A stretch of 63,110 nt of DNA, counting the filler, from Rhabdomonas costata (taxonomy: Eukaryota): the NCBI GenBank assembly GCA_019059605.1. It is 53 parts of 53 records of this genome, joined end to end, with 100 filler letters (N's around TTAATTAATTAA, not from the genome) between each part and the next. Parts side by side here need not be neighbours in the genome. Positions count along the whole stretch, not along the records: positions 32,221 to 33,312 come from JAHMHO010029040.1; 52 more parts are not named here. One strand, 5' to 3'. A program made the translations under genes and the position numbers. The notes under the pieces were generated by a model. The model saw only the letters and a list, made by a program, of their open reading frames with translations. It did no database searches and was not told the DNA's origin. Numbering within the stretch: the stretch's first letter is position 1; every line of letters begins with the position of its first letter. Shown one piece after another: positions 2,384 to 59,938 of the stretch.

Positions 2384-3475
2384 GTGTGTTGTGCCCTATT
2401 GACCAGCTGGTGCTCCCTCTGGACCCACCGGTCTCGGATTTGCTGAACGGCGGGTGGTTCATGGGCAACTACTTCCTTTCTCAAGAAACGCCGTCTGTGA
2501 ATGTGGTGGGCCTTCTTGAGATTTCGGACCAGAAAACCTTCCCGCGCTCGGTAGCGGGGCAGCCGATGGACCTCGTGCTTGGCCTTCGCAGCACGGGTGT
2601 CACTCCAGGCTGGGTGACGGTCTCTGTTGTTGCAAACCAATATTTCCAAAACGGGCAGTTGTGGTGGAGTCTCGGGGCGTTTAACGGCTCCTCACTGTGC
2701 CCTCTGGACTTTAGCCGACTGTACTTCGTTTGTGAGTTGACTAACGTGCAACTAAACTTCTGGGCGGACACCAACGTGCATTTCTTTTTCACCCCGAACT
2801 CCTACCTCGTGGGCTCAATTGCCCTTCAGTTCGTGCTGGACGCAGATGGATGCAGCAGAGTCACCGCGGACCTGACGCCCCAGGTGACTGTGCTGGGTCT
2901 GTTCTCCTTGAACAGCACCCGTGTCAGCCCCGCCACGCCCGTTGCTGGGCAGCAGTTGCAGGTCATTTTGGGGTTTATCAACGAGGCGGTGTTCTCCGGC
3001 GTCAGCTTCCAAATGATGGCTGCGGAAGCAACGAAGTTTCATTCGTTGGAGATCAGTTCGGGCCCAACTGTTGTCAGGGATATTGTCATTCCAGTGAGCT
3101 ATGTTCTCCCCGGGACGCTCGTTCTGGTCGGAGACAGTCCGACCAACTTTTGGCCTTGCGTCCAAGATGCCAGTGGGGCGGTGTTTTTGTGCAATATTAC
3201 TTCCATTCCTTTCCCCACCGGGCTTCTGACAGATGTCTACCTGTGGTTTACACCCAACATCAGCGTTGTTAACATGTTGACTTTTGTTGGTGCGCAGGTC
3301 ACCTCAACTGGTGGGTACTTCGCTGACCTGACTTGCCCGATTCCTGTCACGCTGTATTCCACCTTGATTCAGGATCCCTCGTTCCTTACGGGAATGAATG
3401 TGAGTGCTGAGGCTGGCGAGCTCCTGAATTTCTCCTTTGCAGTTCGTACCCTCGACGTGAATTCCACCAACCCCC
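2384..3475 (+). CDS. Fragment of a large, probably extracellular protein with tandem ~135-aa beta-sandwich (DUF11/Ig-like) repeats
   Basis: The frame is open across the whole contig. Internal repeat: AGQPMDLVLG..C..FVCELTNV..VHFFFTPN..ADLT versus AGQQLQVILG..C..FLCNITSI..VYLWFTPN..ADLT, with a third unit starting AGELLNFSF. Several N-x-S/T sequons. Confidence 0.7.
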
Positions 3476-3575
3476 NNNNNNNNNNNNNNNNNNNNNNNNN
3501 NNNNNNNNNNNNNNNNNNNTTAATTAATTAANNNNNNNNNNNNNNNNNNNNNNNNNNNNNNNNNNNNNNNNNNNN

Positions 3576-5860: not shown

Positions 5861-6073
5861 NNNNNNNNNNNNNNNNNNNNNNNNNNNNNNNNNNNNNNNN
5901 NNNNTTAATTAATTAANNNNNNNNNNNNNNNNNNNNNNNNNNNNNNNNNNNNNNNNNNNNGTGGGGTGGTAAAAAAAGAAATAATTTATTACATTCAATA
6001 ATAAGTAAATATGGTTATGAGAAAGGTGTTGATTTTTTAAATAATATTATTAGAATGGTTACAAATTTTAATT

Positions 6074-6945
6074 TTCTTTTCGTTTCTTTTGTTATAACAA
6101 TATCTCCAATATGTGCAGATGAACCATTTTGTAAATTAAAATTTGTAACCATTCTAATAATATTATTTAAAAAATCAACACCTTTCTCATAACCATATTT
6201 ACTTATTATTGAATGTAATAAATTATTTCTTTTTTTACCACCAACTGCATCTTTTGCTATAATACCATCTTTTATTTTTCCATTTTCAATAATTAAAGTA
6301 AAATTATCTCTTACTAATTTCAAATTTATATTTTCTGGTATAATATATGATATTAAATCTCTTCCATTTACTGTCTTATTTTTATCAAAATATATATTTT
6401 TCTTTTGTATAGACGCTGCTGATAATAAATTCATTGCTGTTTTATATGATATTTCCATATTACCACGAGACATCAAATATAAACCAATTAAACCATCTTG
6501 GACTACAGATATAATTGGAGAACTAGATGCTGGTGTAATTAATTGATACATTACATTTGTAATATTTTTTAATTCAATTTGTGATTGAATATTTTGAGGG
6601 ACAATCATATTCATTTCATCAACGTCAAAATCTGCATTATATGGTGGTGTTACTGCTATATTTAATCGAAATGTTGCAAGATGTTCATTTCTAATAATTT
6701 TTACAATATGTCCCATCATTGACTGCATGTGTAACGTGGGTTGACGATTAAACAACACAATATCACCGTCTTGTAAATGTCTTTCAACAATATCACCATA
6801 TTTAAGTACAATTGTATGTTTTCCATATCGTAAATCAATGGGCATTTGTTTCCCATTAAAACGTTCAACAGGTATAACGTAATTTGCACCGGGGTATATA
6901 TCTCTTCCGTTTCTTACATGTTGTTCAAGTCGTTTTATATTGTAT
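6074..6945 (-). CDS. DNA-directed RNA polymerase largest subunit (Rpb1-like), internal fragment, probably from a giant virus (Nucleocytoviricota, Mimiviridae-like)
   Basis: Motifs YPGANY, GDIVERHLQDGDIVLFNRQPTLH..SMMGH, TFRLN..VTPPYNADFDVDEMN and VVQDGLIG. Intronless and very AT-rich, unlike the host contigs. The ORF-track ends (6015-6073 and 6950-7049) are fold-back duplications, not real coding sequence. Confidence 0.9.
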
Positions 6946-8872
6946 GATGTTACAATATAAAACGACTTGAACAACATGTAAGAAACGGAAGAGATATATA
7001 CCCCGGTGCAAATTACGTTATACCTGTTGAACGTTTTAATGGAAAACAAAAANNNNNNNNNNNNNNNNNNNNNNNNNNNNNNNNNNNNNNNNNNNNTTAA
7101 TTAATTAANNNNNNNNNNNNNNNNNNNNNNNNNNNNNNNNNNNNNNNNNNNNTTTTGTTTGTGGAATTGTGTCGGTCATGTGCTTCTGGGCGAGGGCCCA
7201 TCCTCCCTTGCTTCCTCGAAATGCGATTCGCCGAAAGGTGCGCGTGCGTGCGTGTGCGTGTACAAGCGATGGTATAGAAGGGCGGTATTGTCCCCCGACC
7301 CCGACCTCGACTCCGAAAGCTCCAGAAGATGAGGTGCGAACCCGGTGCCTCTGCTCTGCGTATAGGAAGTGGGTTTTTCCACCCACCCTCGTCCTACTCA
7401 CCATCCTTTTTTCCCTCCTCGATGCGCGATGTGATGCTGGTGGCGAGCGCTGATGTGACTGTGCTGACACGCCAACGGCATTCGGGTTGGGGGCGAACAC
7501 CCCCCATTCCCCTCCGAGGGGGTGCACAGTGGAGATTGCCACCCAGCTGTGTGTGTGCGTGTGTGCGTGAAGATCTGTGTGGTGTGGTGTTTGCCGCTGT
7601 ATGAGTAATTGCTGCGTGGAAAGCGGAGCTGACCCGGCGCCTTCCGCGTGCCTGCCAAGGGTACGAGGATTGGTACGAGGAGGGCTATGCCGCTCCTGGT
7701 CTGCGGGCTTTCCCCCCTCTCTATTCCCTATTGCAACCCCCAGCTCTGTGTCTGTAGGCTTTTTCTTTGCCCTGTAACTGACCTGAGCCCTTTACCGTCA
7801 AAATGGAAAGAGATGGGTTGAGGGACGTCCCTCCCCGGCTGTTCAGAGGACAGCCCTGTTCTTAGTGTGGTGCTGTGTTGTTTTTTCTTGTTTTGGGTGG
7901 CGGCGGGTAAGCGAGCTGCAGAGTTCCACGACATTCGTGACATAGTGCGACGACATTCGACGTCTTCGGTGCCAGTGGACCCGCAGCCCACCAGGGACTT
8001 TGAACTTGCGTAAACCCTACTTGATTTCCCATGCTGTCCCTGAAGCCGTTGTCCTTCCATCCGCGTACTTCCAACTGCTGGAGCAGCTGTGCTAAGATTC
8101 GGCTTTCCCCTCATGTGCCGTGCAGTGGTGATGGGGCCTTTTCTGGACTCTGTTTATTTTGTCAGGCAGATCTTGTGCTCTTGTCTTTTTTTTTCTTTCT
8201 TCTTGGAGGTGTCCGTCACGATGGCGACAAGATCACCAACAAACNNNNNNNNNNNNNNNNNNNNNNNNNNNNNNNNNNNNNNNNNNNNTTAATTAATTAA
8301 NNNNNNNNNNNNNNNNNNNNNNNNNNNNNNNNNNNNNNNNNNNNTTGTTGTGGTTCTTTGTGTGATGCGAGTGTGCAGTTTTTCATTGTGTAAAAATCTG
8401 TCAAATTCTTGTTTTCTCTGTGCCGACCACTTTGCATGGTGACTCCGGTTGGAACGTGTGTTGGAACGTCATGTCTGTGCTACAAGGGGTGAATTCTGCA
8501 TGTTGACGTTGCGCTATTGTACCCTTTTTTCTTGAGGGACGAGGTGGTTAGCTCTGTCTGTTCATCCTCAGTCTGGGTGGTGACATTTTTCTGGAGAGGC
8601 TGAGATAAGAGCCCGAGCAATCCGGCCGGCATGGGAAGGAAAAAGGGCGGCGACTTCTACGACGACAAAAGCGCTGAAGCAGCACGTGAAAAGACCTCCC
8701 GAGCCGCAACTACCAGTCAGTGGTTGGTTTCTAATGTTTCGTTACCTTCGTCATCAATTCTGTCTGCAGTGGTGCAGGGAAGGGCCAGCAGCCTTTAGTG
8801 CCTCTTGGCCCCCCGCCCTGACTCTCCTTTCTCTCTTACTCCAACGCATCGTCCCTTGCCCTCAAGTAACTA

Positions 8873-22648: not shown

Positions 22649-23370
22649 TGTGTGTGCGAAGGGTGTGGATGGTCTGTTGGATTGACAGGAGGGTGTTGAG
22701 AGTTTGCGTGTTCGTTGAGGGTGTGGTTAGTCAGAGGGTCAGGGTCACGGTGGGGTTTCGCGTTTCAGTCGTCATGGTCATGGTGGTGCTGGTGGGTGAG
22801 AGTGACAGGGTAAGAGTGACGTGGAGCGTCAGTTTCGTACGCAGGGTACGTTTCGTGTGAAGGGTCAGTTTCGTGGGAAGGTGTCAGGGGTGTGAATGGT
22901 GACGGTGGGTTGTTGGATTGACATGTGAGTCGGAGGGAGGAGTCAGGGTCTGTCGTGAGATTGGACGTGGGTGTCATGGTGAGGGTGAGTGCTGCGTGAG
23001 GGTCTTGCGTTTAGTTTCTAGGGTTCTGTGCGTATGATGGAGGATGGAGGGTGAGGTTAAGGTCAATGTGAAGGTGAAGGTGAAGGTGAAGGTGAAGGTG
23101 AGGGTCAAGGTTGCGTGTGGAAGGTGACGGATGGTGGATGGAGGATGCGTGATGGTTTTGTGTTTTGGGGTCAGGTTCAAAGGAAGGGTGCGTGGGTTTT
23201 GTGGAGGGTGTTTTTCGTGGATGGTGGATTTCGTGGAAGGGTAAGTGGTTGGAGGGTGAGCTGTAGGGTGGGTGTTAGTAGTCGGAGTGTGGTTAAAGGG
23301 TCCTTGGGTTGATGGTTCAGGGTCCGCGGTGTGTGCGTTTTTGTTTTCGCGTGTGTGTTTGACGTCACTC
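22649..23370. repeat. Strongly G/T-skewed low-complexity non-coding tract including a (GTGAAG)n run at ~23068-23100
   Basis: C and A are depleted on the plus strand; ORFs here are compositional artefacts. Confidence 0.8.
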
Positions 23371-24459
23371 GTGGTGTCCAAGATGAATTCACCGACTCCT
23401 ATCCAAAAGATGGAACAAAGCACGCCGTGAGCAATGACATATGAAGATTAAAAACAACCCCGATGTGAATGGGAACGAGAGGGTCAGACCGCCCACGCAT
23501 GAGCATCGACAGGAAGGCTAGGATGACCAGGCGTCAACGCCTGATGAACCCACTGTCTCAGCATACACTACGAACAGCGATAAGCATGGAGATGCAACTA
23601 AGTGGGACTAAGTGGCCTATGGTGTTAGTTGAACTGTTTCTTGTGAGTTCTGCGATTAAGTGGTAAAAGAATATGGTAAGAGTAAAGCACAATAGCGCCA
23701 GTGGTCGATGGCTATAAAGTACCACTGGTTGACACAACAANNNNNNNNNNNNNNNNNNNNNNNNNNNNNNNNNNNNNNNNNNNNTTAATTAATTAANNNN
23801 NNNNNNNNNNNNNNNNNNNNNNNNNNNNNNNNNNNNNNNNGGCAAGTTCACCAGCCAATAGGATAGGGTTTCGAACACCAGCTACAGCGGCGCAAGACCC
23901 AACCACTGGAAGAGCAGGCTTTGGCACACATCCCTGGAAGCAAAAGGGAGGTCAAAGGAAACCACAATATATGAAGGTATGGGGATCCTTCTTTTGCAGG
24001 AGAAAAGGAAGAAAGATTACGAAAAGCGGCAACTGCAAGAAACACGCCTTACCCAAATTCACTCATACTTCTTTTGATGAAGCACAAACCTCAAAGTTCA
24101 AAAGGTCCCACGAAAAAACTCAATTTCAATTCAGTGTCACCCAGATTCGGAGAGGTCGAAAATCCTCAACAAAAACCCACCCAGCTCAACGTGGGAAACT
24201 TCAATCCCAGTTCAATCCATTAAAAAAAGTTCAAGGTTCAAAGCAACCCTGGGGACAAACTGGCAACCTTCCCTGTATGCACGGGCCTTGAGTTCGAATA
24301 AGAGGATCATAGTTTTTTGATTTCCCGGTTGGGGACCACAGCACGAGAGGGAGGGGGGTGCAGCGTTTCTTTAAGTGAACCTTCCCTTATGTGGACCACC
24401 ACACACATTTCATTTTTTTTTCATTTTTGCCCACACGAAAAAACAGAGAAAAGCCACAC

Positions 24460-28639: not shown

Positions 28640-29463
28640 CGGCCTCCAGGCCGGCAGCTTCCTCGAGCTCCAGCCTTCCTCCTGCTGATGCCGCACGCCA
28701 ACTTACGGTGGCCGAGTACCGTGCTGCGGAGTCTCAGCCTGTCGCTCCCGCTGCTACGGTTGTGCGGCACAGCTCCAGCAGGCCCTCCGTTGCCTCTCGC
28801 AAGGAGGCGACGCTTGCTCTTCCAGCATGGCTTAAGCAACACCGATACCTGCGCGCAGCTCCAGTGGATGAAGGGGAGCCCTCTGTGGCCCTTCTACTCC
28901 TTTGGGAGGCGGACCACGGGAAATTCTTTCCCTGCCGTACTGAGGACATCTCCGGCCGCCTGAACACCTTCACACGGCAGCTGCAAGACGCGGTAGCCTT
29001 GGACGCGCAGCTCTCCTCATGGCTGACCAGCAAGCGGAAAGCGTTCCCCCTAGTGGCCGGCCTTCCCTCTCGGGCTCACCTCCGATGGGCTCTGCGAATC
29101 GACCCCGCAGTGGGCGACCCTTTCGTGAGCATGTGGAAGACCCATGCGATGGAGCTGGTGCGGCAGCACCAAAGTGATGCCCTCTCCGGGACGGCATGGC
29201 GCGGTCGCCCCAAGCGCACCCCAGCGAGCGTGGTTCCACCTCGACCTCCTCAGCAGGGAACCAAGCGAAAACGAGAAGGAGCAGTCCCTCCTCCATCCAG
29301 CTCACAGCAAGCGCGCCTTAAGCGTCTTGCCAAGGCTCGGAAGCTCTTGGAGATACAGCACTCGCCGCCTGCCTCCTCCTCTTCCTCATCAACGAATGAA
29401 GCTGGTGGATCTGCCTCCTCTGAGACGGGATTGGGGCTTCTCCCTCCCGGGGTCCTCACCTAA
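28640..29463 (+). CDS. C-terminal part of an uncharacterised intronless ORF (possibly retroelement-derived)
   Basis: More than 250 GC-rich codons ending PPGVLT-stop, followed by a T-rich tail; no domain recognised. Confidence 0.45.
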
Positions 29464-30928: not shown

Positions 30929-32884
30929 NNNNNNNNNNNNNNNNNNNNNNNNNNNNNNNNNNNNNNNNNNNNTTAATTAATTAANNNNNNNNNNNNNNNN
31001 NNNNNNNNNNNNNNNNNNNNNNNNNNNNGGGGGAAGGCCACTGCGTTGCACCTGCTTCTGAGTTTTGGCAACTCTTACTCAAAGCCAAACGACTGAGCAA
31101 CAGGTATTTTTCTTCTCCCAAGAGGAGGCCCTACCCCCAGCAGTCCAGGAACACGATCACAAGGCTTCCGATGGCCCGCGATATGTGCACGGAGGTGTAT
31201 CCTGTCAGTCAACTCGTACTCCTGCCAGAGCTTCTCCACGGCCGCCTTGGGGTCGCTAACGCCCCTCCTTCACAAATCCGAGTGCAGCTCATACAGGGCC
31301 TTCTGGGTCAGGTAGCCTAGCCCAGAGGCGCGAAGAACTCCACCAGATGGGGGGGGGACTTAGCAGTGTGCCGCAGCCGCTTCAGCAGCGCCGGGGGACC
31401 ATACAGAAAGCAGAACTGAGTGGGGTCGGGCTTCCAAGCTCTGGTCTCCGGAGTTCGTCGGGGTTTGCTCGGGTAAGGGACTGAAGGGCAAATAAACAAG
31501 TCTACTGAATACAGAGTGGCGCCCCTCGTTCCCGTTCCTGTTATTAGCTCGACACACTTCAGTTGAATGCCATGGGGGCATAAACTAACAAAAACGATGG
31601 CCCATGGCTGCCGACGGCTAGTGGACCCGATGGGCCCATACCTCACCCAAGGAACGAGTATGCTTCTTTACTCGCACATTTCTGGTGGTGTTCAGGGCAT
31701 ATCTGCCAACACCTTGGTTGTCAACCATTGTTGAAATATCTTTTCTGTAGTGGTTGCTCTTTTGTCACTCATGCGCAAACATGAGGCGAGAGCACAAGGG
31801 GATCACCGACGAAGCATACTAGCACCACAACGCGATGTGTGCGGCCGCAGTGTATCCACAGTCCACACATACAGTTTCATTTTAATTTCCGATGACTCAT
31901 CGTCACCAAGCGGGACTATACCTTCCGGTCTAAACACTCAACATCCACACACATCAGTTGCGTGGCAACGGGAATGAGGAACACGCGATGGGTGCTGATA
32001 CAGGCAAATTCAAACTGATGTTAGTAAAATGACGCTTTGCCCATTCCCGCAGGATATTGGGTGTTCCATTCCCACAGCCATTCCATATCATCACCAAAGT
32101 ATCGCATCGAAAACACCACANNNNNNNNNNNNNNNNNNNNNNNNNNNNNNNNNNNNNNNNNNNNTTAATTAATTAANNNNNNNNNNNNNNNNNNNNNNNN
32201 NNNNNNNNNNNNNNNNNNNNGGTTGTGGGGAGATGTCTCCACGCCTCGACCACCAAGACTGACTTCAGCAGGGAGCGGCACTGCCTCCTGTCACAACTAG
32301 TTTAACTGATATACACTCTTCTAAAATTCTCCTACTTAACTCTTCGGCACACTTCTATGGACAAATTCCGTCTTAGCCAACAGCCAATGCACAATCCATA
32401 TAAAAGTGAATCGTATTTTCACAATACATAAACACTATGGAAGTGATCTGCTGCTTTGGCGTTCTCCAAACTTGAACTCGGAAAATGTGACTACTGCCTG
32501 CTCCCTGCTGAAGTCAGTCTTGGTGGTCGCGGCGTGGAGACATCTCCCCTCATGAAAAACGGCAGGTTATTCTGGTTCTACCGCTTCTAGAATGTGAATG
32601 TGATTTGTAACCTCGGCCTCATCTTACAACGTATCCTCCACCTCTGAACTCCAGCATTCCTCTGGATGGAGTCACCATCCTCTCTGTAGAAGGCGTACGC
32701 GTTGCATTACATTGTAGCTGTTGATGGGAGAAAAACCTTTACCTAACTCGCAGGAACTTTGGCTGCTAACGTTGGTGGTGTAGCAATTTCGAACAAATTT
32801 GCAGTTCTCTGAACCGCACTTACGTTAAACATAACTCTGAAAAAATGATGCGAGTACACGAGCATCATGACGACTGTTGGAGTG

Positions 32885-33300
32885 AAGGAGCGTACCGCGT
32901 AGCAGTGAACTACCACATTAGGAGCGTAGCGATGGACATGCAGTGGACCGAGCGTAGCGAGAGTGTGGCCCGGAGGGCCTCTTCAACATCTTACTCTTAG
33001 GGGCCCATGAGCGGGTAGCGATTGGTGATACAGGACGAGGAGCGTAGCGAAGAGGACGTCAAGCATTCTTTCTTCTAACAGTAAGCATGAACGCAGTGAA
33101 TGCCGACAGAACGCATGGAGACATGAATAAGAGCGTAGCGAGTATGAATGTCGACTATGATGTGAACATGAGCGTAGCGAATGTGAACCCTATATCATTA
33201 TGGAGACATGAAACACGAACGTAGTGAGAGTTGAATGTCGACTAAGATGACGAACGAACGTAGTGAGTGAGGACTTCAGGATGGAATTAGCGTAGCGACT
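32885..33300 (+). repeat. Array of about 10 GA-[GC|AC]-GNA-[GC|GT]-GA hairpin motifs with tandem GA/GA mismatches
   Basis: Examples: GCAT-GA-AC-GCA-GT-GA-ATGC (33085-33103); ACAT-GA-GC-GTA-GC-GA-ATGT (33166-33184); C-GA-AC-GA-AC-GTA-GT-GA-GT-GA-G (33251-33271). Confidence 0.85.
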
Positions 33301-33415
33301 GACCCACAAAAANNNNNNNNNNNNNNNNNNNNNNNNNNNNNNNNNNNNNNNNNNNNTTAATTAATTAANNNNNNNNNNNNNNNNNNNNNNNNNNNNNNNN
33401 NNNNNNNNNNNNTTA

Positions 33416-33815
33416 AACGTTTAGCGGTGCTAAACGTTAAGGTCAGAACGCAAGGGCGACAAACGGTTCCCAGGAGATGACAATACAAAAGGGATTTTAA
33501 TTAGTTTGGGTGTGAAGGCCAGCGCCGCCGAGGCCAGTCCGCGGTGCGGGAGCGGGCGAATGGGTTGGGACGTTAATGGGGTGGGCGATGCTCCGTTTAG
33601 CACTGCTAAACGTTTAGCGGTGCTAAACGTCCGAATCAGACACATTTTTTGGGATGTTATTTTTAGGACACGGGGGTTAGGTAAACTGTGTCAACTACCT
33701 CTAAATACATTTATTTTAGCAAAATGGGGTTAGGTATACTGTCTTTCTGACCCCTAGGCATACATATTTGAATTGAGCGAGGTTTAAAATTTTGTAACCC
33801 TTTAGCGGTGCTAAC
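33416..33815. repeat. Three copies of a TTAGC-GGT-GCTAA hairpin motif; the middle copy lies within a 36-bp near-perfect palindrome
   Basis: AACGTTTAGC-GGT-GCTAAACGTT (33416-33438); CGTTTAGCACTGCTAAACGTTTAGCGGTGCTAAACG (33594-33629); TTAGCGGTGCTAA (~33802-33814). Confidence 0.8.
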
Positions 33816-41765: not shown

Positions 41766-42106
41766 GGGTTTTGTTCAATGTAAAATGTTTGAAAAATATT
41801 TTTTACTTTTTCGATAATTTGTTCCATGACTGGATCTATTTCATGTGTCTGTCTGTTATAAACTGGAAGTACTTCTGTTTTGTTACTTCCAGATGACAAC
41901 GATGAATTATCTGATGAATCAGATGATGTATCAGGTGATGAATCAGTATCAAACGTTGTCTCTTCTTCGACTTTGTTGATTGGAATAATTTTTGTTGTCG
42001 GATAGTATGTCTGTTTTTGTGGTTGTGTTTGTTTAACTGATGGTCGAAATTCAAAATTCAAAGAATCTGTAGTCGTTTTACTGAGTGGTTCGTAAGTGCG
42101 AAACAT
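41766..42106 (-). CDS. Hypothetical protein (5' part), probable giant-virus early gene
   Basis: AT-rich intronless ORF open to the contig edge, with an Asp/Ser-rich stretch; AAAATTGA about 80 nt upstream. Confidence 0.65.
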
Positions 42107-42186
42107 TTTTATTTCTTATTGTTTGAATGTGTGTCTTCGTATGTGTAGACTAATTGTTTATATATATCATGTAACATAATAAATTA

Positions 42187-42194
42187 TCAATTTT
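42187..42194 (-). promoter_or_regulatory. AAAATTGA mimivirus-type early promoter motif (for the minus-strand ORF)
   Basis: Plus strand reads TCAATTTT in a very AT-rich intergenic spacer. Confidence 0.7.
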
Positions 42195-42250
42195 TATTTT
42201 TAAATATAAATAAAATTATTTGTTCTACCATCATAAAAGTCATTAGACAA

Positions 42251-42258
42251 AAAATTGA
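42251..42258 (+). promoter_or_regulatory. AAAATTGA mimivirus-type early promoter motif (for the plus-strand ORF)
   Basis: Exact octamer about 70 nt upstream of the ATG at 42327. Confidence 0.7.
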
Positions 42259-42326
42259 TTTTTTTATCTTTTGTATGTTAAATTAAAATATAATTTATGC
42301 TCTTATTGTAATTGAAGTTATTCACA

Positions 42327-42842
42327 ATGCAATACGCTATTCCGTCTAGTTCCGATTCGAATTTGAGTAATGAACAACAAACTACACAGTGTAGTATATG
42401 TAAATGGATCAACAAACAATATAAATCTATTACACAAAAGAAGAAAGTTCAATCAGAAATTACAGTACAAAACAAACTTACAAATTTATGTAGTTCGTGT
42501 GCATTTACACGATATGCAACAATTACAAACAGTAAAAATTATACAATGGCATCAATGGTTTCACCGAAGCTAACTGAACTATTGTATCAAATGTTAAATG
42601 AACAATACGGTAGTCCGGTAAAAACAAATTTCTGGCTTTCTGGTAAAAGTGAATTTAAACCAACAAAATGTAAACATGTTGTCATCTCAACATCAAATAT
42701 ATGTACATATCTTCAAGATGCTAAGAAGAGAAATCATTTCATTGAACATCTTAAATTGATGCAAACAGAATTTCTAAAACGGAAAACAGAATACATTGGA
42801 ATCTCTGATGATGATATTTCTAGATTAGCAGATATCAATTAG
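42327..42842 (+). CDS. Hypothetical protein with CxxC..CxxC pairs, probable giant-virus early gene
   Basis: Intronless AT-rich ORF of about 170 codons containing CSIC and CSSC. The stop is close to the contig end, so the gene may be truncated. Confidence 0.7.
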   Translation: MQYAIPSSSDSNLSNEQQTTQCSICKWINKQYKSITQKKKVQSEITVQNKLTNLCSSCAFTRYATITNSKNYTMASMVSPKLTELLYQMLNEQYGSPVKTNFWLSGKSEFKPTKCKHVVISTSNICTYLQDAKKRNHFIEHLKLMQTEFLKRKTEYIGISDDDISRLADIN

Positions 42843-42997
42843 ATGACACACCAACACNNNNNNNNNNNNNNNNNNNNNNNNNNNNNNNNNNNNNNNNNNN
42901 NTTAATTAATTAANNNNNNNNNNNNNNNNNNNNNNNNNNNNNNNNNNNNNNNNNNNNGGGGTGTGTGTTCTTCTTCTTATATATATGGATGGTATGG

Positions 42998-56971: not shown

Positions 56972-58479
56972 GTGTGATGGCCTCACGTGCGTTTTGATGA
57001 CATCAGATATGTGTTCTTCTTGTATAATAAATTAAGTGCCTTAGCCAGACCGCCGTGTTGTGGTGTGCTTCCACAACTGCCACCACCGTGCAGGCGCGAG
57101 CACGATGTGCTTGATGCTCGCAGAAGCATGAGAAGCACCAGGAGTTAAACCCCCCCCAACNNNNNNNNNNNNNNNNNNNNNNNNNNNNNNNNNNNNNNNN
57201 NNNNTTAATTAATTAANNNNNNNNNNNNNNNNNNNNNNNNNNNNNNNNNNNNNNNNNNNNTGGTGGCTCATGCGTATCCCCGAGTCCATGTTCCGCCCGT
57301 GTCCCTTGACTTTTTGTACCACAAACACAAAGCAAATCCAACGGCTTCTGTTTGCCTTGCGTAAACAGCCTGTCTCGTGTTCAATTCCTGCCGTCTCTCT
57401 CCCCCCACCCGTCCAGCGCGCCCGTCCAACGGACGGGTGACGGGTGCACCCCGCACGCCGGTGGAACATTGGAATACTGTTTCCTTCTAACTTTCTCCAT
57501 ATCCCTGTTTTGTGTCACTTGCCGCGGGGCTTACCATCGTCGCACACTGCTCTTGCATAGCTGTCGACGTGGCTTACGCAGCAGCACCTTTCTCTTTTTT
57601 TTGTTGTCAATCTTTTCAGCTGTGTAGTCCACACCTGTACCAACAGAAAGCAGTCACGCAGTCAGGATAATAAGTGTGCTTCTTCGGGAGAGTGAGTGTT
57701 TCGAGGTGTAGTAAGCTGTCCGCGTGAATCGGAGGATCAAGGGAGCTGTGGCTGGCTGTTTGCTCGTTTTCCGCCCCACTTCAGCTCTATCGTCGTTATA
57801 GGGGAAGGGATAGGTACAGAGGTGGGTACAGTGGAATATCAAAACCCGATTTCAGGCTCTTCCGCCCACTCCTCGGGGCGGTCACCTCTCCATCTCCGCT
57901 CCCCATTGCACCCTCCAAACGTGCGGAACGTGTCCACCTTGCCCTCCGTAGCTGTGATTTGTGAGAATAAGTGATTCACAAGACAAGCCCTAAAAAGACC
58001 TTGCGTATCTTTCCTTCCCCTATATATTCTGCTCCTCCCTGTTGTGCAATCTCTGTGCAGGAGCAGTACCTCTGGTTGTCACTTCTCTTTGTGCCCACTT
58101 CACACTGGACATTCTCTTCTTTGGTGGCTTCTCCTCGTCCCTCTCCAGCATGGGCCTTTGCAGGGCTATTTGTGAACAGGAAGGGCTGCGGCAAAGTCTC
58201 GCCATGACTTCAAAAGAAGCCGTTGCACGAGAGTCCGTATTGATAGTGGAGACATTGTGATGGTTGACCCACACCTTTTGTTTTCCTTTTCATCCCCTCC
58301 CCCTCTACCTTTCCCTTTCCGGACGCTGAGAGGCGTCAGTGCTGTAACTGTGNNNNNNNNNNNNNNNNNNNNNNNNNNNNNNNNNNNNNNNNNNNNTTAA
58401 TTAATTAANNNNNNNNNNNNNNNNNNNNNNNNNNNNNNNNNNNNNNNNNNNNGTGGTGGGTGCGAACCATGACATCTTG

Positions 58480-58780
58480 ACGTTGGAGGAGGAGCATGCG
58501 AGGGACCGAGCATGCGACGTGAAGAGGACCGAGCATGCGACGTGAAGAGGAGTTGGAGGAGGGATGCGAGGTACCGAGCATCACGACGACCCTTTCATCT
58601 TCTTTCTTCTGTTGGAGGAGGAGCGTAGCGACGACGACGTAGGGGTGGAGAGGAGGAGCGTAACCGCATGCGGTGAAGCGACGACGTCATGCATTGGAGG
58701 TGGGAGGAGTGGAAGCGCGTAGCGGTGGAACAACGACCCACACACGTAGGAGGGAGGAACCAGCGTAGCGAGTGACGCCC
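58480..58780 (+). repeat. Second G/A-rich array with GA-mismatch hairpin motifs and a ~23-bp tandem duplication
   Basis: GATGC-GA-GG-TA-CC-GA-GCATC (58563-58582); GAGCGTAGCGA (58621-58631); GGACCGAGCATGCGACGTGAAGA twice (~58503-58548). Confidence 0.7.
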
Positions 58781-59938
58781 GACACACAAACATCTTTTTA
58801 CCCTGCGGGCCCGTCCCACGCACCTTCTCACACCCTGTACATAGACAGCCTCAATCAGCTGGGTGTGAGGGTTCATCTTTGCATACGGTGGGCCCTCTGT
58901 CAACATTCCTCTCTCACCTCACCTGTCAGCATCTTCCTCTCCTGCAGCAAGGTAGCGGTAGGGTAGCATGCTTAGTCCACTCATCACCCTAAGAGTGGGC
59001 ATTGTACCTTTCTTACACCCTGGTTGTCAGCATACCGGTCATGTCGGTCTCGGCGACCCCCACTATGGCATACTCTACCATCGGGTGGTAGGGTACATCA
59101 ACGCACACGTAGCGATACTCACACCCGCTACCTTGCCACCTTGGCGTAGGAGTGGCAGCATCACCACAAGCTCCATCCACACCGGGTACGGTGAGACTTC
59201 CCTGCTACCACCAACATCCGATGCTACGGTTGGCATCATCACGTGTGGGCTGGTTCTTGCTCCATGACAGTCAGCGTTGCACCAACGGTAGGCCATATAC
59301 CATCACCATCATCGCTGGATGTGGCTGGGTTGAGCCTTGGCCTGACCTTCTAGCTTCCTCCGGAGGGGTTTACCGGTCGTATCCGTTACGTGGACTAAGC
59401 GACTCCTGCATGGCCTGCTCACAACTAGGGTGTATACCCATAGTGCTACTAGGGGGCATGTGTCAACCAGTGGTAGTAAATAGCCATCGACCACTGGCGC
59501 TATCGTGGAGCACTGTCACCATAGGACTGGTTACCCACTTAGANNNNNNNNNNNNNNNNNNNNNNNNNNNNNNNNNNNNNNNNNNNNTTAATTAATTAAN
59601 NNNNNNNNNNNNNNNNNNNNNNNNNNNNNNNNNNNNNNNNNNNTTGTTGTTGTCATTCCTCACACAGCCCTTCTTTCCTTCTTTCATTCACTTCTTTGTT
59701 TGGTGAGAAACACTCTGGCCTCTGCGCTATCAATGCGCTTATATCTTGGTATCCTCTCGAATGGTTAGCACTGCTGCTCAAGGGTCCGAAGTTTCGCATC
59801 TCAGAACGTCCCTTTGGGTGTGGAGCGAATCTCGCACGTGTGTTGTGAAGAGCTCATTTGTCCTTGACCTGTTTTCGTCTTGCTGTTGGGCGGGACTGCT
59901 CACGTTTGAGCTGGGACGGACGGGGGTATGTATTGCAG

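Follow-up and report, generated by a model that had tools for sequence, protein, structure and literature searches.

A purine-rich array of GNA mini-hairpins with tandem G.A mismatches in a putative dispersed repeat from the Rhabdomonas costata assembly

The chemistry of DNA mini-hairpins and of sheared G.A pairs, the hairpin repeats of the REP type and the Bpu elements are already known. The mini-hairpins d(GCGNAGC) / d(GCGNNAGC), studied by Hirao and colleagues, are covered by a 2026 review (PMC13037366), whose available text describes them as extraordinarily stable, undenatured in 7 M urea and resistant to nucleases, and places natural examples at the complementary-strand origins of the phages G4 and St-1, at ssiA of RSF1010 and in the N4 promoters. 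Hairpins composed of G:C pairs and sheared G:A pairs, the so-called CGAG blocks, were found to be thermally stable by nuclear magnetic resonance and ultraviolet melting according to the accessible part of PMC10085684, and satellite III DNA, (ATGGA)4, folds via sheared A-G pairs according to that of PMC11014236. Here we consider an array of hairpins of this kind at positions 32885-33300 of a 63,110-nt stretch of DNA from Rhabdomonas costata (assembly GCA_019059605.1), referred to below as the window. The purine-rich strand alone carries the hairpin design of this array, which is one-strand-specific. In nature, mini-hairpins and sheared G.A pairs are known from just a few origins and promoters of phages and plasmids; in the array their use is repeated, strand-specific and situated in what appears to be a dispersed eukaryote-like repeat.

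The window consists of 53 contigs of 1084-1129 bp each, which are artificially joined by the linker N(44)-TTAATTAATTAA-N(44), occurring 52 times at a spacing of about 1192 bases and carrying stops in all six frames. Adjacent contigs are unrelated, so that any feature apparently crossing a linker is artificial. The array is located inside the contig 32221-33312 (contig A, 1092 bp), and statements about its neighbourhood are confined to those 1092 bases. Since the window strings together unrelated contigs, each about 1.09 kb long, the context of the array amounts to just 1 kb, without a gene or a replicon. Most contigs have 43-66% G+C, CA/GT microsatellites and open frames that are proline-rich or of low complexity, and we read most of them as eukaryote-like nuclear DNA.

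One-strand design and probable dispersal of the array

Seven exact copies of GCGTAGC were found in 32897-33296, all on the + strand, and they share with the published mini-hairpins a C-GNA-G triloop on two G-C pairs. The array differs from these in several respects: its heptamers stand between GA and GA and continue into additional stems, in three copies (ACGNAGT) the outer G-C pair is exchanged for A-T, and the whole lies in a eukaryote-like repeat, whereas the review, in its available text, names no sites other than origins of phages and plasmids and the N4 promoters (PMC13037366). The content of A+G is 61% over 32885-33300. The window contains 10 matches to the pattern GARCGNAGYGA, where 0.35 would be expected (none of 100 shuffles reached 10), and 8 of these 10 are located at 32922-33266, every one on the + strand. 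In its strict form, GA-xy-GNA-y'x'-GA, the core occurs in 32885-33300 eight times on the + strand and never on the - strand, the mean and the maximum of 1000 Markov-1 simulations with the array's own composition being 0.033 and 1, respectively. A ninth, imperfect core, TAGCGTAGCGA, begins at 33288, and a bare GCGTAGC at 32897. Seven of the cores follow each other at start-to-start distances of 28-91 nt, with the copy at 33089 standing outside that family.

Pairing extends beyond the cores. At offsets 6-15, Watson-Crick pairs occupy 41 of 90 positions, compared with 24% at 338 other centres within the array, and eight further GA/GA tandems were found outside the cores; not one of 5000 random sets of nine centres equalled the observed Watson-Crick or GA-tandem value. 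Five extended hairpins, 25-39 nt in length, are made of short Watson-Crick blocks alternating with tandem GA/GA mismatches, an arrangement that we call a GA zipper, and nearly all non-Watson-Crick positions in them are G.A or A.G. The symmetric pair strings start with g||ag, that is, a G.A pair closing the loop, two Watson-Crick pairs and then A.G and G.A, which make up the 5'-GA/5'-GA tandem; the string at 33136, for example, is g||aga|||ag|||||ag|, and that at 33222 is g||ag|.|||ag|||||ag|. When six or more Watson-Crick pairs and two or more enclosed GA tandems are required, there are five such hairpins in contig A and two in the contig 58453-59543 (contig B), against 0.01-0.02 in simulations. 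The other 51 contigs contain none, and none was found on the opposite strand anywhere.

The variation of the stems is compensatory, and the changes seen are those that keep the pairing. In 8 of 8 strict cores, position 3 is complementary to position 9, the two being G..C in five, A..T in three and mixed in none. The downstream half of the array is a tandem duplication of an 85-nt unit, composed of one 39-nt and one 27-nt hairpin, with 78% identity over 72 columns by BLAST. Of the 12 pairs common to both units, four have changed on both sides and none is broken; 100% are paired, compared with 0-46% when the partner is slid. The original prediction had announced about 10 motifs spaced 30-60 nt apart, with covarying cores and with outer stems in which Watson-Crick blocks alternate with GA/GA, had spelled out two hairpins at 33118-33154 and 33203-33241, and had related the motifs to the d(GCGNAGC) DNA mini-hairpins. 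Both hairpins were recovered exactly there, and the covariation, the compensatory changes and the restriction of the GNA and GA/GA design to one strand were all borne out, the last also in the scan of all 53 contigs. The spacing is somewhat wider than had been stated. The link to the mini-hairpins agrees with the motif published in PMC13037366, as far as its available text goes.

A second copy of the repeat was found in contig B. In a local alignment of 32849-33143 with 58461-58773, 192 of 275 ungapped columns are identical (about 70%), and the score of 64 compares with a maximum of 40 in 200 shuffles and with 21 for the reverse complement. Common landmarks are a pyrimidine-rich island and GAGGAGCGTA…GACGTCA(A/T)GCAT, and the purine-rich array of contig B ends with …CAGCGTAGCGAGTGACGCCCGACACA, and contig A itself with …TTAGCGTAGCGACTGACCCACAAAAA. 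Copy B follows the same building rule with different tips. Its hairpin (GGA)3-GCGTAGC-(GAC)3 at 58613-58639 has essentially the same design as the CGAG block of the AUTS2 promoter, in which Watson-Crick pairs alternate with tandem sheared G:A (PMC10085684). Along the stems of all five multi-tier hairpins of A and both of B, tandem GA/GA recurs between Watson-Crick pairs. The accessible part of PMC10085684 presents AUTS2 as one promoter locus, in which the blocks are of G:C alone and the purine loops are long, whereas the array adds A-T blocks, a GNA triloop at the tip and repetition.

Copy A exceeds copy B by about 170 nt, which corresponds to its two 85-nt units, and each copy has its own unique flank. 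Both arrays abut a contig end, A the end of its contig, stopping 14 nt short of it, and B the first base, which is the usual behaviour of assemblers at repeat borders. The presence of a second copy, about 70% identical, on another contig suggests that the array is one copy of a dispersed non-coding genomic repeat of roughly 0.35-0.47 kb and probably not a separate replicon. Rfam gave no match at the gathering score in the whole window and none at E<=1 in the two array contigs, a tRNA scan yielded nothing relevant, and BLAST of all 53 contigs revealed no homologue of the element among 451 fetched loci.

For the dodeca-satellite of Drosophila, a G.A-stabilised fold-back of the purine-rich strand has reportedly been proposed. 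By analogy with it and with human satellite III, the array might be structural chromosomal DNA, namely a repeat of the centromere, pericentromere or subtelomere in which the purine strand forms such fold-backs, and we regard this as rather improbable. The array is located in small unplaced contigs, which are typically repeats, and the abutment of both arrays on contig ends is in agreement with this possibility, as is human satellite III (HSat3), where the purine-rich strand, (ATGGA)n, forms a hairpin with sheared A-G pairs and the complement cannot fold (PMC11014236, accessible text). However, centromeric satellites are short homogeneous tandem units, whereas the array is a heterogeneous element with GNA-loop tips; Tandem Repeats Finder returned no rows in contig A at a score of at least 30 and only 2.1 copies of a 23-mer in contig B. 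Because the copies are just 70% identical and their flanks are unique, an interspersed element fits better than a homogenised satellite. A homogeneous satellite was rejected, the sole tandem structure of A being the single 85-nt duplication.

The array had originally been predicted to belong to an unrecognised replicon, with linked cox, cob, Rep or viral genes to be sought. No such gene can be linked to it within the 1092-bp contig, in which no stop-to-stop frame exceeds 79 aa, and the supposed replicon is therefore left without support; the diverged second copy with other flanks also speaks against it. A signal for single-strand initiation, priming or origin function of a separate rolling-circle, organellar or viral replicon is accordingly very unlikely in our view. 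It would agree with the use of mini-hairpins at the G4/St-1 origins, RSF1010 ssiA and the N4 promoters (PMC13037366, available text), with the fact that the mitochondrial Bpu element of cycads is centred on the 11-mer core (PMC8297867, accessible part) and with the viral contig L251, where two near-identical GA-zipper hairpins adjoin iteron-like direct repeats. Against it stand the lack of a linked replicon gene, the two diverged copies with different flanks and the base composition, since the two array contigs, with 47% and 56% G+C, resemble the nuclear-like contigs and not the two AT-rich ones found among the 53 (5961-7052, 26.6% G+C, and 41766-42857, 28.7% G+C).

Upstream of the array, contig A contains a 53-nt inverted repeat, 32224-32276 / 32500-32552, with arms that are 96% complementary and separated by 223 nt. 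Pieces of its arms, GCGTGGAGACAT and GACTTCAG.A.GGA, reappear within the array, which may be due to chance. Across the window, GCGNAGC occurs 56 times compared with 23 expected from dinucleotide shuffles (0 of 100 reach 56); 10 of the 56 fall in the two arrays, and the remainder are mostly GCGCAGC or GCGGAGC in G+C-rich frames. The features of both copies are collected in Table 1.

Table 1. Features of the two copies of the repeat (positions along the window)
Feature	Coordinates	Strand	Remarks
Copy A of the repeat, purine-rich mini-hairpin array	32849..33312	+	Local alignment to copy B starts at 32849
Core GA-GC-GTA-GC-GA	32922..32932	+	No clear outer stem
Core GA-GC-GTA-GC-GA	32950..32960	+	No clear outer stem
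Pyrimidine-rich island CCTCTTCAACATCTTACTCTTAG	32978..33000	+	Interrupts the array; aligns with a similar island of copy B
Core GA-GC-GTA-GC-GA in a G/A-rich hairpin	33040..33050	+	Pair string g||aggag|ag|a
Hairpin GCAT-GA-AC-GCA-GT-GA-ATGC	33081..33107	+	A-T core variant, GCA loop
Three-tier GA-zippered hairpin, unit 1: GACAT-GA-ATA-a-GA-GC-GTA-GC-GA-g-TAT-GA-ATGTC	33117..33155	+	11 Watson-Crick pairs, 3 GA tandems
Hairpin, unit 1: GT-GA-ACAT-GA-GC-GTA-GC-GA-ATGT-GA-AC	33162..33188	+	
Three-tier GA-zippered hairpin, unit 2	33203..33241	+	Compensatory changes relative to unit 1
Hairpin, unit 2: AC-GA-AC-GA-AC-GTA-GT-GA-GT-GA	33249..33273	+	
Terminal core TA-GC-GTA-GC-GA, then CTGACCCACAAAAA	33288..33298	+	Copy B ends similarly
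Copy B of the repeat; tips GCATGC, CCGCATGCGG, GCGTAGC	58453..58795	+	(GGA)n/(CGA)n GA-zipper arms; begins at the first base of its contig

The core in other genomes and in described repeats

Paired cores, searched for as GAGCGTAGCGA-N15-45-GAGCGTAGCGA, were found in at least 119 metagenome stretches, in at least 120 stretches of bacterial and archaeal genomes from many phyla and in 70 viral contigs, including giant-virus bins. In control scans of viral contigs, GA-GCGTAGC-GA gave 70 loci and GA-GCGAAGC-GA at least 115, compared with 7 for the reversed 11-mer, 14 after a change of the loop to GAT, 13 for a random permutation, 7 for TC-GCGTAGC-TC and 6 for the Watson-Crick-flanked GA-GCGTAGC-TC. 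Short-range repeated GA-GCG(T/A)AGC-GA is 5-16 times commoner in these contigs than the control 11-mers. It follows from these scans that the GNA mini-hairpin has a specific association with GA..GA on its own strand, which exceeds that with a perfect stem about ten-fold, and this coupling is hard to explain except via a single-strand fold. The roughly ten-fold viral enrichment over the Watson-Crick- and TC-flanked versions suggests that the folding of single-stranded DNA shapes the evolution of repeats in many genomes.

The same scans bear on the idea that the array is a neutral by-product, a degenerate minisatellite with an unselected fold that owes its palindromic look to hairpin-templated repair or slippage. 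The 85-nt tandem duplication and the different numbers of units in A and B are consistent with this origin, but the mismatches in the stems are almost exclusively G.A, template-directed fold-back synthesis would place Watson-Crick TC, not GA, opposite GA, and the paired version with Watson-Crick flanks is the one that is some ten times rarer in viral contigs (6 vs 70 loci). We consider a neutral origin highly doubtful.

In most matches, which are grouped repeats or arrays of short period, the 11-mer is enclosed by variable complementary arms, for example, tgtcatccc-…-gggatc, ttgac-…-agtcaa and tagct-…-agcta. A complementary pair just outside GA..GA is missing in 182 of 644 distinct instances (28%; 309 loci), against 75% expected. 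Second-tier GA zippers were found in 41 of 946 distinct instances, compared with about one in slid controls, and with 5 of its 9 cores multi-tier, against those 41 of 946 elsewhere, the window array is the most elaborate GA zipper in the set. Hairpins close to those of the window are ACGAAC-GAGCGTAGCGA-GTGAGTG in L251 and TGAAC-GAGCGTAGCGA-GTGAA in locus L275. Some matches are coding, such as the Erwinia NERSDR repeat (L121), and about 55-70% of the prokaryotic and viral arrays are located outside open reading frames of at least 90 aa. Prokaryotic arrays favour convergent gene ends (19 convergent vs 1 divergent). No strand preference was found in co-directional spacers (6 vs 7), and the gene context therefore does not tell whether the role is one of DNA or of RNA. 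Literature searches with short peptide strings, taken from the bacterial version in its three reading frames, yielded nothing relevant.

Tandem series of the core were observed in several of these genomes. A gene-poor eukaryote-like metagenome contig (L026, 1-250, - strand) contains seven tandem copies with a period of 32-35 and the unit GATGTCTGAA-GAGCGTAGCGA-CTGAGAC. Six tandem copies each were found in a giant-virus bin (L256, 290-510, period 38-39) and in an actinomycete intergenic spacer (L169, 6537-6750, period 37).

Bpu and Bpu-like elements were reportedly described from the mitochondria of Cycas and Ginkgo by Chaw and colleagues in 2008. The 36-nt consensus, as given in the accessible part of PMC8297867, holds GAGCGTAGCGA between the complementary arms CCTTTCCT / AGGGAAGG and has thus the plan stem-GA-GC-GTA-GC-GA-stem, which is also that of the array. 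Only the 11-mer is common, however, and the surrounding 17-mer has one match in the window, with 2 mismatches. The array lacks AAGG terminal repeats and consists of many hairpins, whereas Bpu, which is dispersed in mitochondrial DNA, has only one hairpin, of 36 nt. Assignment to the Bpu-like elements, which are defined by the 36-nt consensus, AAGG terminal direct repeats and a Bpu10I site, was rejected, as the array has the 11-mer core alone in common with them. In open-access literature searched by sequence, the 11-mer GAACGTAGTGA was relevant only in the Cycas Bpu paper (PMC8297867), its other occurrences looking like primers or chance matches to unrelated sequences, and longer strings from the window were not found, a result that is provisional.

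Short palindromic repeats with covarying stems, often grouped, make up the CGTC/TGTC superfamily of REP and BIME sequences as well (Di Nocera et al. 2013, PMC3733652, accessible part). The marks of this superfamily are a terminal CGTC/TGTC tag and, after it, a stem that starts with A-T. The YGTCAY tag accompanies 47 of 236 prokaryotic and metagenomic core loci, about a fifth. Within 12 nt upstream of the 11 window cores it was found in none, and the array was not counted among the CGTC/TGTC-tagged REP sequences. It differs from REP and BIME further in its eukaryote-like host, and no RAYT-type (Y1 HUH) gene is linkable in the 1092-bp contig.

Helitrons end with a 3' hairpin followed by CTRR, have TC at the 5' end and are inserted between A and T. 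Copy A is similar in having a small hairpin a few bases before its 3' border (…GCGTAGC-GA-CTGA…), but copy B has GTGA instead of CTRR, the base after CTGA of copy A is C, and neither a Rep nor a helicase was found.

A proposed single-strand fold and the points against it

In our opinion, the array may best be explained as a selfish or structural interspersed repeat that is maintained as a one-strand DNA fold, a tentative explanation to which we assign slightly less than an even chance. The purine strand, once unwound, would snap into a row of GA-zippered mini-hairpins, each with a C-GNA-G triloop, a 2-bp stem, a tandem 5'-GA/5'-GA and more Watson-Crick blocks alternating with GA/GA. As the complement carries TC/TC and a TNC loop, the fold would be limited to one strand, and because the pyrimidine strand cannot fold, the duplex contains no cruciform-prone perfect palindrome. 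The fold would be open only during unwinding, in replication, in a transcription bubble, in repair or in a single-stranded transfer intermediate, and would itself be the property that is maintained. The array presumably grows via local duplication, as the 85-nt two-hairpin unit indicates, and may behave like the hairpin repeats of the REP type or of the miniature inverted-repeat transposable element (MITE) type from bacteria, viruses and cycad mitochondria. Candidate uses of the fold are to pause or prime DNA synthesis, to withstand single-stranded-DNA-binding protein (SSB) and exonucleases, or to be recognised by a single-strand-specific enzyme, as in the REP/RAYT case. We infer that the strand folds in vivo, that it does so as DNA and not as RNA, and that the fold has a role.

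Several points weigh against this explanation. The two-row shuffle control of the covariation is weak, 29 of 500 shuffles equalling the observed value, and the structure was derived from the same sequences on which it is tested. The A..T cores may stem from one event, so that independent compensatory events number perhaps one to four. The upstream cores at 32922 and 32950 are devoid of an outer stem, which makes the array heterogeneous, and only two copies are visible among the 53 contigs. Folding with ViennaRNA, using DNA and RNA parameters, showed the whole + strand array to be no stabler than shuffles (z = +3.4 and +1.25, respectively); single hairpins of the purine-rich strand reach -1.2 to -2.6 kcal/mol, and 39-116 of 200 shuffles fold equally well or better. 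Finally, the variable core positions 3, 6 and 9 are the third codon positions of the peptide E-R-S-E, and a part of the covariation is therefore open to a second formal reading.

As regards stability, the nearest-neighbour model credits neither GNA loops nor sheared G.A pairs, and for that reason we judge the lack of excess stability to be uninformative. The review, in its available text, states that established parameters cannot account for the mini-hairpin motif (PMC13037366). Since the computed energies are unremarkable, the claimed stability rests on published biophysics and not on the computation made here.

A protein-coding repeat E-R-S-E/D (GAR CGN AGY GAR) would explain the variation at positions 3, 6 and 9, and the bacterial match L121 is a real coding repeat, NERSDR... 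In the window, however, the eight cores are distributed over three frames, no frame is free of TGA and TAA, and open frames across the array reach 76 aa at most; when TGA is read by hand as Trp, TAA and TAG still close the frame that runs through two hairpins. Because of these stop codons and frame changes the coding reading was rejected, and its probability is practically negligible.

Tandem sheared G.A pairs are stable in RNA too, and hairpin loops of RNA are typically GNRA or UNCG tetraloops. The first of these facts makes it conceivable, although distinctly unlikely, that the purine-rich strand is transcribed and that its tandem G.A hairpins act in a non-coding RNA, as a module of an untranslated region or as a platform for protein binding. 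The same local hairpins reappear when the + strand is folded as RNA, and the polarity of the array and two pyrimidine tracts ending in AG are in line with transcription. On the other hand, no Rfam match was found at E<=1, the RNA fold is no better than that of shuffles, as noted above, and the tip is unlike the usual RNA tetraloops. The C-GNA-G triloop is a hallmark of DNA mini-hairpins in the available text of PMC13037366.

Beyond the one-strand DNA fold of this single repeat, a broader and on the whole unlikely proposal can be formulated. GA-flanked GCGNAGC hairpins with freely covarying outer stems might represent a single undescribed class of genetic elements of single-stranded DNA. Its members would occur in phages and giant viruses, in bacteria and archaea, in plant mitochondria and in eukaryote-like nuclear DNA, and a conserved process that is specific to single strands, for instance priming, slippage of the replication fork, or the action of a nuclease or transposase that binds hairpins, would read or propagate them; the array would then be the first multi-hairpin eukaryotic member. 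In open-access literature, text searches revealed neither a multi-hairpin, multi-tier GA-zipper element of a eukaryote-like genome nor any mention that viral contigs are selectively enriched in GA-GCGNAGC-GA repeats and that the core occurs in prokaryotes, metagenomes and a plant mitochondrial element as well; both results are provisional. Such arrays may be of practical importance, as they would stall polymerases and break assemblies, both arrays touching contig ends. If an enzyme recognises the fold, such repeats are the place to look for it.

Other sequences of the window

The AT-rich contig 5961-7052 carries on the - strand an open reading frame, 6015-7100, that encodes a fragment similar to the largest subunit of RNA polymerase II, with Pfam Rpb1 domains 2 and 3, the catalytic motif NADFDVDEMN and S. 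pombe Rpb1 as the top solved match (E 1e-55). Pfam searches of eight long frames of the window gave this RPB1-like fragment as the sole match, and the protein atlas placed it in generic Rpb1 clusters. The composition of its contig is foreign to the other contigs, and a virus, a nucleomorph or another associated AT-rich genome is a possible source. The second AT-rich contig, 41766-42857, with a 176-aa open frame without a Pfam match, may have the same origin.

The frame 2386-3483 had no relative in a protein search that covered longer proteins only. A 273-aa open frame at 28642-29463 (+), in which no Pfam domain was recognised, has 18 relatives with 41-70% identity in short metagenome contigs and looks like a member of a multi-copy family. 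Copies of a palindrome with perfect 8-bp arms around a loop of 3 nt, CGTTTAGC-(ACT/GGT)-GCTAAACG, are found in the contig next to the array contig, at 33413-33440 and 33594-33630: one copy is located at the contig start, and 180 nt further in a 17-nt unit is repeated in tandem about 2.2 times. This is a hairpin repeat distinct from the GA-zipper array.

A G/T-rich degenerate array of 700 nt (22649-23360), with a GC skew of about +0.3 and including (GGTGAA)10, occupies a large part of the contig 22649-23740. A 65-bp segment of the same contig (23672-23736) recurs at 59459-59523, the far end of contig B, with 85% identity and in opposite orientation. Together, the G/T-rich array and this segment suggest that more interspersed repeat families exist around these arrays.

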